Position numbers and translations under genes: made by a program. Below the pieces are notes generated by a model. It was not told where the DNA came from, ran no database searches, and worked only from the letters and a program-made list of their open reading frames with translations. A stretch of DNA of 64,000 nucleotides, from the NCBI GenBank assembly GCA_951406725.2, contig OX597837.1, positions 40,052,001-40,116,000 on the forward strand, in the 5' to 3' direction. The stretch comes from Octopus vulgaris. Its lineage: Eukaryota. The stretch's first letter is position 1, and every line of letters begins with the position of its first letter. Below, piece after piece: positions 4,088 through 62,061 of the stretch.

Positions 4088-4479
4088 TGTCCAAATTGTA
4101 ATTGTAATAGAATTTCGAACTGAAAACCTGTTAATGTTGAAGCATCTCAGGGTAAACAATATTCATTGTGTAATTTTATGTCGGTTTCGAAATGAATAAT
4201 TTATTGCTGCTTCCAACTCGCGAGCAAGCAGCGGAGAGTTGGCCGTGAGAAAAGCATGTAGAAGAGAGATCAAGTTCAAGTACCTTGGCGGATTGACCTT
4301 GAGATTTGTTAATTAAAATATCAAAACTTAGTTTGACTGGAAACTAAAGCGTCTAAAATTCAAATGGAGCATCTGTAGGTATGAGACGAATTTTTGGAAT
4401 AAAGACATTTTCTCTTCTGTGACTACCTGCTATGATTGTTTAGGACATGGAAAGCATCTTGGAGATGAACATGATTTTT

Positions 4480-5160
4480 TAGCCCTTAACTTGTTTGGAT
4501 TGTTACGAATGTAGAGGAGACGCTGACTCTCATCTTTAGCATACATATCAACCAGGTGCTGCTGAAATAGATCACGATACATGTGTAAGTGATTTGATTG
4601 TTCTGGTCTTAACATCAGTTGGTAAGAAAAGAAGTCATTTGGAGGAACATGGCCTAGTGGTTAGAGCAGCGGATGCACGGTCGAGGCATCGCGGGTTCGA
4701 ATCTCAGACCGTCAATGTGTGTGTTTATGAGCTAAGCACCTAAGCTCCACGCGGCACCGGCAGAAGGTAATGGCGAACTTCTGCTGACTCTTTCGCCACA
4801 ACTTTCTCTCACTCTTTCCTCCTGCATCTTGCAGCTTACCGGCGTCCCGTCCAAGTGGGGAACCTATACGCCAAGATTTTCTGTCCCCTTTATGTTTAGC
4901 CCCTTGTGTGCAATAAAGAAATAATGAATAGAAGTCATTTGACGACACCTTTTAGTTTATAATTGTTTCTCCTGTTGCAGATTCAACTTGTGGAATATTG
5001 AAATGATACCTGTCTTGTCCATTCTGCAAAATAAGAGAATACTGGAGAGCAGCGTAAGAGAGACGAGTCTCTGAAACATGTTTAAGATTCTTATCTCGAG
5101 CACGAATGAGAATATCCCGACTTTAATGACCGCACATCGTGCGCTCATTAAAACGGCGTA
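4480..5160 (-). pseudogene. Helitron RepHel fragment (helitron_like_N region) interrupted by a SINE
   Basis: With the SINE removed, the translation reads RRFN..RDILIRARDKNLKHVSETRLSYAALQYSLIL..DRYHFNIP..KVSSNDFFSYQLMLR..DLFQQHLVDMYAKDESQRLLYIRNNPNKLRA; these are Helitron Rep motifs, with in-frame stops. Confidence 0.9.
4641..4929 (+). mobile_element. SINE family B with tail T3 truncated and capped by tail beta
   Basis: A and B boxes present; TSD agaagtcattt at 4630-4640 and 4930-4940; ends tttagccccttgtgtgcaataaagaaata. Confidence 0.88.
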
Positions 5161-15682: not shown

Positions 15683-15935
15683 ATATGGATACACGCACAC
15701 ACACACGCTCACCACACACATACGCTCACACACAGACATATATATGTATGTATTAGTGAGATACTTAACAAAGAACATTCTTGGTGGCGGATAATTCTAG
15801 GAAGAATGGTGGAAGCAAAACTGACATTTTTCTTTAACTGATGATGTTGTCTAGTCATAAATGGCATATCATGCCAGCCGACAGGGGTAATCTATTCAGT
15901 CTAATAATAATGATGATGATGATAATGATAATAAA

Positions 15936-16009
<74 letters not shown>

Positions 16010-16542
16010 CAATACCAGACAGTGACTCTCATGGCTGCTGATCTTAACTGATTGGAAGTGTTATCATGTACATTATTTTGTCTCTGTATAAAAGATGGGC
16101 TACAGCAAACATTCCGCTCAATACCACAGATTGGCTTGTCAGTTGTTTGACCTTAAACCAGTTGAGCATGTCCCTTTGTGGCTGACGATATGTGCATCTC
16201 TGATCATGAGCAGAAATAATCGTGGAGTATTAGAGCCATGTCTTGAGAGGGAATTCTTTAGGGTTTGAATAATTCACCTTTGGAAATGTGGGTGGTTCGT
16301 TCAAAATCCTTAAACAACCCTTATTCAGGGACCTTTTGTGCGGGTTGACCAGAAGAACATTGTAACTGGGCTCCACATGCAAGGTGATGTGCTGTTTAAG
16401 TTGATATGAGATCACCATGTCTCGCACATATGGTTGTGATGCATGTACCTGGTCTATCAGAGGGGTGGACATGATGGGTGTACTGGGCTTCGTTTATCTG
16501 TACCCCAGTGTCACTTTGATGGCATGCACTGCTCTCTCACTC
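16010..16542. mobile_element. about 540-bp non-coding element embedded in (AAT)n, copy 1
   Basis: Colinear with 18711-19257 and shares the end gcactgctctctcactc followed by (AAT)n. Confidence 0.85.
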
Positions 16543-16583
16543 AATAATGATGATGATAATAACAACAACAACAACAACAACAA

Positions 16584-16675
<92 letters not shown>

Positions 16676-16749
16676 TTACTACTACTAATGATACTATTAC
16701 TACTACTACTACTAATAATAATGATTATTGAAAGTAGATCTCTTCTCAG

Positions 16750-17208
16750 GTGACACTCTTAAAGAAAGTTGATGTGGAAAAAGGAATTTTCCAGGGGGTC
16801 TCATTGTCCCCTTTAATATTTGTCTTATGTTTGATCTCCCCCCACCCCCACAGTTTAGTATTAAGTAGCACAAAAGCAAGGTATCAGTTTAGAAATAGTG
16901 AGGCAAAATTTAAACATTTACTCTACATGGATGATCTGAAGCTGTTTAGTAAGAATGAAAAAGAGATGGATCCCTTTATAGAGACAGTAAAACTTCAGCA
17001 AAGATACGGGCATGGAATTTGGCATAGATAAGTGTGCAAATATTAGTCATGAGAAGGGGACAGGAAGTCAACAGCGAAGGTACACAATTACGTGATAGCC
17101 AGACATTAAAATCATTGAAAGGAGGAGAGAGTTATAAGCATCTAAGAGTATTAGAATCTGACAGAGTACTAACTATAGAAATGAAAACGAAAATTGAGAA
17201 GGAGTATA
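16750..17208 (+). pseudogene. R4/Dong-clade LINE reverse transcriptase fragment
   Basis: KGIFQGVSLSPLIFVLCL..HLLYMDDLKLF, then frameshifted FSKDTGMEFGIDKCA..ESYKHLRVLESD. Confidence 0.88.
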
Positions 17209-17377: not shown

Positions 17378-17762
17378 GCCTTATCTATCTATCCGCTCAA
17401 TCGAAGTTGACTCTCGGTTACTCGATGGATCAGTGATCTCCAGCTTGTTCTATCCTGGGTCGCTTCTTTCAGATTGGTTATGGCCATTCCCGTGTCACTC
17501 TTAATGGTGTCAAGCCAGCAGGTTCTCGGTCGGCCTCTTCCTCTCTTGCCACTGACCATTCTGACCATGATGTCCTTCTCCAGGGATTTTCTCCGCATAA
17601 TATGACCAAAATATGCCAATCTATGCTTGGTGATCCTAGCTTCTAGCGACAGTTTCGGCTTGATCCGGTTAAGAACTTCGCCATTGGTGAGCCTCGCTGT
17701 CAATAGAATCCGTAAAAGTCTTCTACAACACCAAAGCTCGAATTATTAATGCATTAATTCTC
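17378..17762 (-). pseudogene. RTE (BovB-like) LINE 3' end
   Basis: FELWCCRRLLRI..TARLTNGEVL..RLAYFGHIMRRKSLEKDIM..GKRGRGRPRTCWLDTIK..QDRTSWRSLIHRVT*. Confidence 0.92.
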
Positions 17763-18592: not shown

Positions 18593-18662
<70 letters not shown>

Positions 18663-18671
18663 GATGATGAA

Positions 18672-18710
<39 letters not shown>

Positions 18711-18711
<1 letters not shown>

Positions 18712-19257
18712 GCCATGATGCAATACCAGGCAGTGGCTTTCATGGCTTCTGATCTTAACTGATTGCAAGTGTTATCATGTACATTGTTTTGTCTTGGTAT
18801 AAAAGATGGGCTACAGCAAATATTCTGCTCAATACCACAGATTTGCTTGTCAGTTGTTTGACTTTAACCAGTCGAGCATATTCCTTTCTGGCTGATAATT
18901 TGTGCATCTCTGATCACGAGCAGAAGTAGTGGGGGAGCATCATGGCCATGTGTTGAGAGGGATTCTTTAGGGTTTGAATAATTCACCTCTGGAAACATGG
19001 GTGTATCGTTCAACATCCTTAAACAACCCTTATTCAGGGACCCTTTGAGCGGGATGGGTTACTCGACCAGAAGAAAATTCTAACTGGGCCCCACCTGCAA
19101 GGTGTTTATCTTGATATGAGATCACCATGTCGCGCACATATGGTTGTGATGCATGTGCCTCGTGTACCCTTATCAGACGGGTAGTCATGATGGGTATACT
19201 GGGCTTCGTATATTTTACCCAAGTGTCACTTTGATGGCATGCACTGCTCTCTCACTC
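18711..19257. mobile_element. about 545-bp non-coding element embedded in (AAT)n, copy 2
   Basis: Same sequence as 16010-16542, with (AAT)n on both sides. Confidence 0.85.
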
Positions 19258-19279
19258 AATAATAATAATAATAATGATG

Positions 19280-19364
<85 letters not shown>

Positions 19365-20432: not shown

Positions 20433-20464
<32 letters not shown>

Positions 20465-20498
20465 TGTATGTATGTATGTATGTATGTATGTATGTATG

Positions 20499-20534
<36 letters not shown>

Positions 20535-20629
20535 ATGAGGGAGATAAATTAATATTAATTTTAATATCAATTTAAAACCAGTAGTCTAGCATACAAAAAA
20601 TCTGAGAAGTCAGAGAAAATTCTAATATA

Positions 20630-21096
20630 TGTGTATATTGGCAGGGCTTACTGCTAGGGAGTCGGCCGTATGCTAGAAATAGACCATCAACGATCAAACT
20701 ACAAGGAAATTCTCTAGAGGAAAAATACAGCGAACACCAGAACCAACTTTTGAAGACATTTGAAATTTTATCACTGGTGTAATGTAAAGCTACACACGTG
20801 TCTGTACTGGCACGAAAGCTGGGGTTAGCTTTTCAGTTTACATCACAATGAACGGATGCACTGAAGAAGCACGGACATTTGAATTACGTAAATAATTCTT
20901 TTGTTAAGGCTGAAACCGAGGTATGCATTTAATTCTGTTTTTAATATAAATTTTCATATGTCATGCCCGCCAAAGTTGGTTCTGGTGTTCGCTGTATTTT
21001 TCCTCTAGAGAATTTCCTTGTAGTTTGATCGTTGATGGTCTATTTCTAGCATACTGGTTGTCGACTCCCTAACAGTAAGCCCTGCCAATATACACA
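20630..21096. mobile_element. inverted-repeat element (about 120-bp arms) with a hammerhead in the spacer
   Basis: 20630-20750 is a near-perfect reverse complement of 20972-21096; adjacent to (TA)n. Confidence 0.88.
20856..20928 (+). ncRNA. type I hammerhead ribozyme motif with intact core
   Basis: Stem I AUGCA/UGCAU; CUGAAGA; stem II AGC..GCU extended by gaca/uguu and gaauua/uaauuc; GAAAC-CGAG-GUA with cleavage triplet GUA. Confidence 0.8.
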
Positions 21097-21147
<51 letters not shown>

Positions 21148-32224: not shown

Positions 32225-33026
32225 AAGGTGGCGAGCTGGCAGAAACGTTGGCACGCCGGGCGAAATGCGAAGCCGTATTTCGTCTGCCGTTACATTCTGA
32301 GTTCAAATTCTGTCGAGGTCGACTTTGCCTTTCATCCTTTCGGGGTCGATAAATTAAGTACCAGTTACGCACTGGGGTCGATGTAATCGATTTAATCCGT
32401 TTGTCTGTCCTTGTTTGTCCCCTCCGTGTTTAGCCCCTTGTGGATAGTAAAGAAATAGGTATTTCATCTGTCTTTACGTTCTGAGTTGAAATTCCGCCGA
32501 GGTCGACTTCGTCTTTTATCCTTTCGGGGTCGATAAATTAAGTACCAGTTACGGACTGGGGTCGATGTTATCGACTTAATCCGTTTGTCTGTCTTTGTTT
32601 GTCCCCTCTATGTTTAGTCCCTTGTGGGTAGTAAATGAATAGGTATTTTGCTTGCCATTACGTTCTGAGTTCAAATTCTGCCGAGGTCGACTTTGCCTTT
32701 CATCCTTTCAGGATCGATTAAATAAGTACCAGTTACGCACTGGAGTCGATATAATCGACAATCCGTTTGTCTGTCCTTGTTTGTCCCCTCTATGTTTAGC
32801 CCCTTGTGGGTAGTAAAGAAATAGCTATTTCGTCTGTCGTTACGTTCTGAGTTCAAATTCTGCCGAGGTCGACTTTGCCTTTCATCCTTTCGGGGTCGAT
32901 TAAATAAGTACCAGGTACGCACTGGAGTCGATATAATCGACTCAATCCGGTTGTCTGTTCTTGTTTGTCCTCTCTGTTTAGCCCCTTTTGTGTAGTAAAG
33001 AAATAGCTATTTCGTCTGCTGCTACG
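32225..33026 (+). mobile_element. SINE-D chain: one head, 4 beta units of about 183 bp, and a partial unit
   Basis: Units restart at 32458, 32642, 32824 and 33006, each directly after the tail end gtaaagaaata (gtaaatgaata once). Confidence 0.93.
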
Positions 33027-35350: not shown

Positions 35351-35600
35351 GAAATTTGCAGAGAATCTGTTACAAATTCCACATAGAAAAATGTACATGA
35401 CTTTAGTCTGTCAACTAACTGAGAAATTTCATTGGAATCCTACTTTTTTCAGGATAGCACAGACTACCAAATGAACATCATTATTGGAGTGTGTCTGAAC
35501 ACCTTGGAACTCTGATTATTCGAAAAGTAATGCCAAGAAACAGATTTATAATCATCAAGTGGTTTCTTCATTTAGTTGACAATGAAAATGCAGAACATTA
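35230..35600 (+). pseudogene. piggyBac (PGBD-like) transposase N-terminal fragment
   Basis: GKSPIEILKSFLDEE..FIGILLFSG*HRLPNEHHYWSVSEHLGTLIIRKVMPRNRFIIIKWFLHLVDN. Confidence 0.88.
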
Positions 35601-35603
35601 CAA

Positions 35604-35929
35604 CTTATTCTTTGGAAGCCTAGTACTTATTCTATCGGTCTCTTTTGCCGAACCGCTAAGTTATGGGGATGTAAATATACCAACATCGGTTGTCAAGCGA
35701 TGTTGGAGGGACAAACACAGACACACAAACATACACACACACACACACACACATATACATATACATATATATACGACGGGCCTTTTTTTCAGTTACCATC
35801 TACCAAATCCACTCACAAGGCTTTGGTCGGTCCAAGGCTATAGAAGAAGACACTTTCCCAAGGTGCTACGCAGTGGGACTGAACCCAGAAGCATGTGGTT
35901 TGTAAGCAAGCTACTTATCACACAGCCAC
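35604..35929 (-). mobile_element. SINE family A truncating the piggyBac relic
   Basis: Colinear with other A copies. Confidence 0.88.
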
Positions 35930-37086
35930 TTGGGAAAAATAGAAGTTGAAAATGCACTGAGAATAGGTAAAATAGTTTTTATTAATATAAAAGTTTAACC
36001 GGTTTCACAATTAACACTGATTTTCAAAAAGATGAAATAGAAAGACGTGGCTTATATCACAGCTGTCTTGCTTCTGACTAGCGTTTGAAGTTTGCTCTGT
36101 TTTTATGGGGAATTCATGGCTCAAATTAGTATCTGTTTTGAATAAAATTTGATTGGTAGATGATAGTCACATTACTGGTCTTAGAAAATTTGTGTAGGTT
36201 CCCCGCTACGTCCGTGTGATAGTATCAAGAGACAATGTTTGGCGTCGTCAGTTAAGGCTGACACGGTTGACTGAAAAAGTCCAAACACTCAATGCTCTGA
36301 ATGTTCAAGTGATTGTAGAGAATGAACACATGGTTACGTTTATAACCCCATAGACAGATTAAATTCGGAATGCCTAGATTGTAGCTGCACAGATTCATTC
36401 AACCGTGTCGTCCTTCTTTTCAGGCGCAAAATATACTGTGACGTGAGACTAACGCACGGACATGGCAGGAGGCGTGCAAGGGATTATAAACTTAATCATG
36501 TGTTCATAATCTACAAACATTCTGAGTATTGACTATTTGGACTTGCTTAATGGTTATTTGATTACATCCCCGTAACTTAGCGGCTACGCACAAAAGATCG
36601 ATACAATAAGAACTAGGCTTAAAAGCAAAGATCAAAACTTTAGTACTGGGGTCGATCGGTGTCCATTAAAAACTCGAAACCAAATGGCTGCAGTTACGAA
36701 GCGAGCTTCTTAATCACATAAACACAACAACGTTCTCGACTACCAGAATATAAATTGAGACATTTTCGAAAATAATTTTATAGTGATAACCCTTAGAGAG
36801 AAAACTCAGGCAAAATAACGAGATTTTGAAGTGGCTGGCTAGTATATAATTTCATTGTTGTCAGTATTACGCATCTTCACATAGTCGCATGACATCTATC
36901 ACTATATCTGTCTGTCTGTCTGTGTGTGTATGTATGTATGTATTTGTCTATCTATATATACATACATGCATAAACGCACACACATATATATAATATATTT
37001 ATTTGTATACATACATACGTAGATGTGTAAGTATATATATATATGTAAATATGTGCATATATATATACATTCACACAGTCACACGC

Positions 37087-61127: not shown

Positions 61128-61188
61128 ATTATACACATATTACCAAGTTAGTCTGTACTTTACACATTTGATCATCAATTTAACCCGT

Positions 61189-62061
61189 GGAGTCGATGTA
61201 ATCGACTTAATCCCTTTGTCTGTCCTTGTTTCCCCCCTCTATGTTTAGCCCCTTGTGGGTAATAAAGAAATAAGAAACATTAGCACGAGTGGTGAAATGC
61301 TTAGCGGTATTTCGTCTGCCGTTACGTTCTGAGTTCAAATTCCGCCGAGGTCGACTTTGCCTTTCATCCTTTCGGGGTCGATTAAATAAGTACCAGTTAC
61401 GCACTGAGGTTGATATAAACGAATTAATCCGTTTGTCTGACCTTGTTTGTCCTCTCTGTGTTTAGCCCCTTGTGGGTAGTAACGAGAAATAGATATTTCG
61501 TCTGCCGCTACGTTCTGAGTTCAAATTCCGCCCAGGTCTACTTTGCCTTTCATCCTTTCGGGGTCGATAAATTAAGTACCAATTACGCACTGAGGTTGAT
61601 ATAAACGACTTAATCTGTTTGACTGTCCCTGTTTGTTCTCTCTGTGTTTAGCCCCTTGTGGGTAGTAAAGAAATAGATATTTCGTCTGCCGCTACGTTCT
61701 GAGTTCAAATGCCGCCCAGGTCTACTTTGCCTTTCATCCTTTCGGGGTCGATAAATTAAGTACCAATTACGCACTGAGGTTGATATAAACGACTTAATCT
61801 GTTTGACTGTCCCTGTTTGTTCTCTCTGTGTTTAGCCCCTTGTGGGTAGTAAAGAAATAGGTATTTCGTCTGCCGCTACGTTCTGAGTTCAAATTCCGCC
61901 CAGGTCTACTTTGCCTTTCATCCTTTCGGGGTCGATAAATTAAGTACCAATTACGCACTGAGGTTGATATAAACGACTTAATCTGTTTGTCTGTCCCTGT
62001 TTGTTCTCCCTGTGTTTAGCCCCTTGTGGGTAGTAAAGAAATAGGTATTTCGTCTGCCGCT
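61189..62061 (+). repeat. SINE-D(beta) chain with 184-bp periodicity
   Basis: Unit starts at 61306, 61492, 61676, 61860 and 62044; the last three full units are near identical. Confidence 0.95.

Follow-up and report, generated by a model that had tools for sequence, protein, structure and literature searches.

A head-to-head pair of 5'-truncated modules, one bearing a hammerhead motif, in a (TA)n tract of Octopus vulgaris that resembles insertions of Penelope-like elements

Introduction

The insertion pattern of endonuclease-bearing Penelope-like elements (PLEs) is already published: (TA)n targets in which TSDs are hidden are described in PMC8557442 and PMC3846280, along with an inverted 5'-truncated copy and a one-sided tail. 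According to Cervera and de la Pena 2014 (PMC4209133), the minimal hammerheads of metazoan PLEs belong to type I, have a 5-pair stem I and a palindromic minimal helix III, are dependent on dimers by design, and are mostly found singly, in truncated copies; cleavage of single hammerheads was undetectable, and dimers cleaved little. For Poseidon PAc of Anolis, Frangieh et al. 2024 (PMC11167929) report reverse transcription in vitro from two internal sites, one of them an AC-rich stem-loop, and a hammerhead that required the element's protein and was not needed for insertion in vitro. Animal non-LTR retrozymes, which are noncoding and carry type I hammerheads, have been proposed to depend on PLEs (PMC7229834 and bioRxiv 10.64898/2026.07.22.740005).

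The locus described here lies in a 64-kb window (the whole stretch of Octopus vulgaris DNA that was analyzed, 64,000 nucleotides) and consists of one 3' module present twice, in opposite orientations. Both copies are 5'-truncated, and they meet head to head; (TA)n lies on either side of the pair, which has an extension at one side only. The preferred reading, to which we assign a probability of roughly three in four, is that positions 20533 to 21098 are a single insertion made by endonuclease-bearing PLE machinery in a (TA)n tract. By analogy, the locus appears to resemble the 3' end of a PLE from the Hydra clade or a related group, although no linked RT frame was found. With Hydra-clade PLEs such as Hydra-1_Obim of Octopus bimaculoides and Penelope-13_HM, described in PMC8557442 (Craig et al. 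2021), it shares the (TA)n target (probable at the locus), a sense-strand hammerhead near the 3' end with a short palindromic stem III, and an inverted 5'-truncated copy at the 5' end. A mismatch at the base of stem II is often tolerated in both, being U-U in the Hydra clade and A-C in most relatives of the locus. However, the 3' end of Hydra-1_Obim in that source does not match the locus by eye, the halves of the core are 44 nt apart at the locus, a distance that never exceeds 26 nt among the 26 animal rows of its file S2 (two of the eight plant rows have 48 and 54 nt), and the extension measures 97 nt where 30 to 40 nt is described. Octopus Naiad PLEs also have a (TA)n target, and the core halves of eight Naiads, one from Octopus, are 35 to 50 nt apart; Naiad_Obim, Naiad_Ovul, and Naiad_Omin nevertheless have 3' ends that, by eye, are unlike the locus, and the locus has all three stems.

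The remaining systems match in part. The locus and the PLE hammerheads of PMC4209133 have in common the type I motif, a stem I of five pairs, a minimal helix III that is palindromic, a design that depends on dimers, and occurrence as a single hammerhead in a truncated copy, whereas helix II has 7 to 8 pairs there and 13 to 14 pairs in three segments here, and the conserved G10.1-C11.1 pair is A-U in the locus copy. PAc (PMC11167929) resembles the locus in having two inferred 3' ends, one of them in an AC-rich stem-loop downstream of the hammerhead, and an AT-rich target; its hammerhead overlaps the start of an ORF, whereas no ORF follows the hammerhead of the locus, and its two start sites bound a short tail, whereas the ends at the locus are 97 nt apart. 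Retrozymes (PMC7229834) form head-to-tail tandems with one hammerhead per unit, in contrast to the head-to-head arrangement with one hammerhead seen here. Classification of the locus as a non-LTR retrozyme was rejected because no tandem is present there: at the strict motif setting described below, there is one hammerhead at the locus and in the whole window. Head-to-tail partial tandems of the kind that give direct pLTRs in endonuclease-bearing PLEs are likewise not seen at this locus.

Extent and architecture of the insertion

Relatives of the element were examined in contigs of public runs. Of the 24 listed runs, 20 (10 studies, 4 organisms) contain some of the stretch, the highest fraction of its words in any run being 0.44, and contigs from four runs, labeled X2, X3, X8, and X9, were compared (the four sets comprising 241, 864, 437, and 57 contigs). 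X8 may be an RNA run. Positions 20533 to 20980 (left flank, left arm, and loop) served as the reference, so that both arms of any copy map onto one arm. The listing of individual contig features covers 32 pieces (of 1,614), 24 loose ends (of 175), and 40 variant rows (of 57), and summed contig depth is not equivalent to copy number. The parts of the insertion and its surroundings are as follows.

20435 to 20530, no strand: a (TATG)n tract followed by (TA)14, the left half of the inferred target site
20533 to 20750, minus strand: inverted 5'-truncated copy of the family 3' end (extension plus left arm), with its 3' end facing the left (TA)n and high summed contig depth throughout in 4 of 4 runs
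20533 to 20629, minus strand: one-sided 97-nt extension, identified by contig depth and overlooked in the initial annotation
20545 to 20574, minus strand: predicted 13-pair AT-rich hairpin within the extension
20624 to 20639, minus strand: predicted 6-pair AT hairpin with a CACA loop, found in one fold run in the centroid and not in the minimum-energy fold
20630 to 20750, minus strand: left arm (apparent TIR), from the arm alignment
20737 to 20746, plus strand: 10-nt stretch complementary to 20976 to 20985, also directly upstream of 20753 in other copies (three X8 contigs, by eye)
20751 to 20752, no strand: two-base filler at the head-to-head junction, from contigs and the arm alignment
20753 to 21096, plus strand: forward 5'-truncated copy (upstream part, hammerhead, and right arm); X2, X8, and X9 pieces start matching at 20753
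20972 to 21096, plus strand: right arm, the 3' part of the forward copy, from the arm alignment and contigs
21099 to 21142, no strand: (AT)22 tract after two extra G, the right half of the inferred target site

The initial annotation had described a palindrome with near-perfect arms, limited to positions 20630 to 21096. The arms are indeed there (20630 to 20750, 121 nt; 20972 to 21096, 125 nt), with 119 of 125 alignment columns identical, all differences between them confined to 20654 and 20665 to 20667, and a fold z of -26 for the stretch as a whole, but the element starts 97 nt further left, at 20533. In contigs of the four runs, positions 20533 to 20629 belong to the repeat beyond the supposed TIR end: the bin across 20630 is about as deep as the bin to its left in 4 of 4 runs, the depth of the extension is 0.8 to 2.9 times that of the arm, and none of the 24 of 175 loose ends listed falls at 20630. 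Divergent contigs from X3 (20600 to 20750), X9 (20610 to 20698), and X8 (20618 to 20744) span this position; under a rule of 31 letters on each side, no piece among the matches listed bridges it, the best having 30 letters on its short side. The repeat thus continues through 20533 to 20629, and the coordinates 20630 to 21096 are too narrow. Because the extension meets the (TA)14 run and the right arm stops two bases short of the (AT)22 run, the insertion is taken to span 20533 to 21098. In contigs, other copies continue past 20536.

TA runs of at least 10 occupy 3.5% of the window. No direct repeat was found outside 20630 and 21096, where the flanks read TATA and GGAT, and at this single locus a TSD is not readable within the (TA)n tract. 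No second copy was found in the 64-kb window. The segment from 20533 to 20660 folds with a z of -3.07, matched by 0 of 200 shuffles. In the family module, the order is upstream part, hammerhead, arm, and extension; the forward copy (20753 to 21096) carries at its 5' end the shorter inverted copy, which runs from 20750 down to 20533. No coding frame of note was found inside the element. A splice-donor-like GTAAGC is located at 21076 to 21081 (plus strand), near the end of the arm, and a pyrimidine tract with CAG is located at 20600 to 20612 (minus strand) in the extension; together, GTAAGC and CAG would delimit a candidate 49-nt intron in the family RNA, and the acceptor-like CAG is retained by diverged relatives. 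An intron in the 5' untranslated region is frequent in PLEs.

The hammerhead motif

The loop of the insertion contains a type I hammerhead motif with a predicted cut after A20923.

20856 to 20928, plus strand: hammerhead, type I, from motif scan, folding, and variants in relatives
20868 to 20911, plus strand: predicted stem II (3+4+6 pairs and two 3x3 internal loops); in most relatives, a further pair, U-G, closes a GUAA tetraloop
20915 to 20922, plus strand: minimal, near-palindromic stem III; two molecules are predicted to pair at -6.6 kcal/mol, with tandem G-A

The complete core, 5-bp stem I, and self-pairing 44-nt stem II reported initially are borne out. Stem I (20856 to 20860 with 20924 to 20928) has five Watson-Crick pairs, the core pieces CUGAAGA (20861 to 20867) and GAAA (20912 to 20915) have their invariant bases intact, and stem III is CC-GA-GG, that is, two pairs and a two-base loop. 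At a strict setting, which was picked close to the observed motif, this is the sole match on both strands of the 64 kb, and 0 of 150 dinucleotide shuffles yield one; at a looser setting, 10 of 150 shuffles contain a match versus 1 observed, and at the loosest, 19 of 150 versus 2 observed. The 44-nt insert forms 13 pairs in three helices (z of -3.15; 1 of 200 shuffles as good), and 2.4% of 3,000 GC-matched 44-mers from the window fold as well. As a whole, the 88-nt motif is not unusually stable (z of -1.43; 22 of 200 shuffles). Rfam yields no hammerhead match and nothing at gathering score in the 64 kb, and the 15 weak matches around the element at E values up to 10 are all unrelated.

The initial annotation further considered this motif the best candidate for an active ribozyme in the window, which now appears doubtful. 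Folding predicts that helix III forms only as a dimer and not within one molecule, and the insertion holds a single hammerhead, whose cut site lies 173 nt from one 3' end and 270 nt from the other. The pairing probability of stem I is 0.38 to 0.84 within 20840 to 20945 and falls to 0.05 to 0.12 in the forward copy or the whole element, and the locus copy has lost the pair that closes the GUAA tetraloop. On these models, efficient cutting by the locus copy on its own is unlikely. Furthermore, given that stem III is not intramolecular, the single hammerhead, the low stem I pairing, and the published behavior of PLE hammerheads, a monomer assay on 20840 to 20945 could be negative even for a functional family.

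Exact-motif scans of other collections gave 0, 2, and 0 matches in viral contigs, 0 and 9 in genome contigs, and 1 in metagenome contigs, all judged to be chance. All nine bacterial matches are without stem I (at most 2 pairs), L001 and L003 match in the motif only, and L002 is not among the best 20 rows.

Relatives in public contigs

The junction of loop and right arm is family sequence, being present in two X3 contigs (joint 20750/20971, on opposite strands) and two X9 loose ends. Conversely, the left junction, from arm to loop, is in none of the 32 of 1,614 pieces listed. Listed pieces that cover 20753 begin to match at that point, and what precedes it in them is other sequence (X2, 66 nt; X8, 100 and 16 nt; X9, 2 nt). 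In three X8 contigs, the sequence upstream of 20753, of which 30 letters are visible in relatives, ends with the same 8 letters as 20737 to 20744, and about 25 nt of it is arm-like by eye. An imperfect inverted repeat native to the family may therefore surround the hammerhead domain, and the complementarity between 20737 to 20746 and 20976 to 20985 is a possible seed of the fold-back.

A second head-to-head junction was found in one X8 contig, where arm position 20716 is joined to loop position 20814, with 30 letters on one side, leaving an 87-nt arm. Variable arm length, suggested initially as a check, is thus seen, in one contig only. Relative to the locus, its loop part has 7 differences in 127 positions and the adjoining arm 0 in 79 (Fisher P = 0.045). 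Judged from this single contig, another copy is more likely than a deletion allele, although the latter may apply given that the adjoining arm is identical to the locus. Both junctions (20751 to 20752 and X8 20716/20814) share two filler bases, possibly by chance; the filler was set aside as a mechanistic mark because a short microhomology, GAAA, is also present at the second of them.

The ratio of arm depth to that of the 5' part of the loop is 7 in X8 and 35 to 53 in the other three runs, as against about 2 expected for a fixed MITE, and the ratio to the 3' part is 1.3 to 3.5; the 5' part of the loop is 6 to 27 times rarer than the 3' part. The step in depth near 20870 may reflect 5' truncation or subfamily divergence, and the single loose end listed there is diverged sequence with the core still present.

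None of the 40 of 57 variant rows listed hits the invariant core bases or 20912 to 20932, and 11 of the 40 fall in 20848 to 20911. One contig has U at free position 7 together with G20868 and C20911, an A-U to G-C swap in stem II that gives the canonical pair, the linkage having been read from the depth value of the contig. U20870 (one loose end) and A20909 (common) would change C-G to U-A and were not seen together on one contig. In most relatives, U20887 and G20892 close the GUAA tetraloop, and the base of stem II is an A-C mismatch in about 84 to 94% of depth. Variants that weaken the fold are this mismatch, A20856U (outer stem I pair, one contig), and G20888A in the tetraloop (a minority).

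Alternative explanations

A TIR-based classifier would see a MITE with fixed 121-bp TIRs and a hammerhead-like motif that arose in its loop by chance. The TG...CA ends, the 95% identity of the arms, the absence of an Rfam hammerhead match, and the 10 of 150 shuffles that match at loose settings agree with this, yet it is largely refuted, as the initial annotation had anticipated, and we regard it as very improbable: the repeat runs past the TIR end, so that the supposed ends are not those of the element; a shorter-armed junction exists, and that of the locus is in none of the listed pieces; no shuffle matches at the strict setting; the TATA and GGAT flanks form no direct repeat at this locus; and arm-to-loop-5' depth ratios of 7 to 53 disagree with a uniform length and shared internal sequence. 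Slightly more credible, although still very unlikely, is a nonautonomous Helitron- or Helentron-like element that has a 3' hairpin and whose copies are 5'-truncated, with a local rearrangement as the source of the palindrome. Depth climbs toward one end, only 12 nt separate a 13-pair hairpin from the left end, and a Helitron fragment occurs elsewhere in the window. Helitrons end in CTRR. However, no such end is present at 20533, the hairpin is AT-rich, other copies extend past 20536, and the kept hammerhead would be unexplained.

The main rival, because contigs do not separate the right junction from a longer left arm, is a DNA transposon of the foldback type. Such an element, whose inverted repeats are long and variable, would have captured a PLE fragment containing the hammerhead, and the microsatellite would later have replaced about 97 bp of its right arm. 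Variable arms are known in foldback elements. The near-perfect arms and an arm depth close to the 2:1 expected of a two-armed element, relative to the 3' part of the loop, fit such an origin. What makes it improbable is that the loop's 5' part is much rarer than its 3' part and continues into nonarm sequence, that the hammerhead core has been preserved and shows a compensatory change, for which a captured passenger would have no need, and that no TSD or terminal motif is common to both ends. The preferred reading, an insertion made by PLE machinery, agrees with the initial annotation as far as anatomy is concerned, because the parts fit a head-to-head insertion; membership in the PLE class, also claimed there, is putative, since no RT or GIY-YIG frame is linked to the element (a PLE domain occurs in none of the 130 window frames scanned, out of 264 candidates) and the octopus Naiad or Hydra consensus ends gave no match in a search by eye and by exact short motifs, in which line breaks may hide matches.

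Proposed mechanism

Under the PLE reading, the endonuclease would nick AT-rich DNA, as suggested by published PLE biochemistry, and reverse transcription would have an internal start on the RNA, at either of two sites that lie 173 and about 270 nt past the hammerhead cut. Both cDNAs would stop early and be joined head to head, producing the apparent TIRs and the one-sided extension; their junction may be seeded by the short inverted repeat proposed above as native to the family. By analogy with PAc (PMC11167929), the end of the forward copy at 21096, in the CACA loop of the 6-pair AT hairpin, is a candidate internal start of reverse transcription, which counts as a lead given that it comes from one locus and that AT hairpins are cheap. 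The hammerhead would serve as a processing motif of the family, cutting as a dimer in tandem transcripts or with the help of a protein, and the solitary, slightly decayed hammerhead of the locus is probably a passenger.

More broadly, the locus could belong to an abundant nonautonomous PLE-mobilized family with a selected 44-nt stem II capped by a GUAA tetraloop, a native inverted repeat that seeds the junction, and two RT starts 97 nt apart; this proposal is tentative, and we consider it rather unlikely to hold in full. If it were true, complete hammerheads with a long stem may account for some of the "half-core" motifs reported in animal PLEs, and a share of the annotated MITEs in such genomes would be retro-derived.

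Implications for annotation

As the insertion pattern has been published, the locus is mostly a lesson in annotation: TIR-based tools would class a retro-insertion as a MITE and trim 97 bp from it. Less ordinary are the long, apparently maintained stem II, which escapes both Rfam and the 7- to 17-nt spacer descriptor of PMC8557442, and the coincidence of one 3' end with an AC-loop hairpin. Both bear on the role of the hammerhead in PLEs and on the origin of the inverted copy and tail. A literature search conducted largely outside subscription journals found, as judged from the listed entries, no cephalopod hammerhead family of this kind and, by title or abstract start, no paper on the misclassification of PLE palindromes as MITEs.

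Other repeats in the window

Tandem arrays with a unit of about 184 bp, 86 to 91% alike, occupy 32241 to 33026 and 61188 to 62061, with many dispersed partial copies; the motif scan found no hammerhead in them. A Helitron helicase-like fragment is located at 4433 to 4660 (minus strand; PF14214, E = 2.3e-07), and a SINE-interrupted, piggyBac-like transposase fragment at 35458 to 35946 (plus strand; PF13843, E = 3.7e-04, below the curated cutoff). The frame at 17389 to 17742 (minus strand), which has no Pfam match, presumably resembles the C terminus of an RTE-type LINE. Finally, two 700-bp repeats with 82% identity surround a reverse-transcriptase fragment (15904 to 16606, 16738 to 17028, and 18610 to 19321; Pfam RVT_1, E = 1.4e-06) that we take to resemble an R4/Dong-type LINE, and a second, weak hammerhead-like match is located at 16182, inside the first of these repeats.
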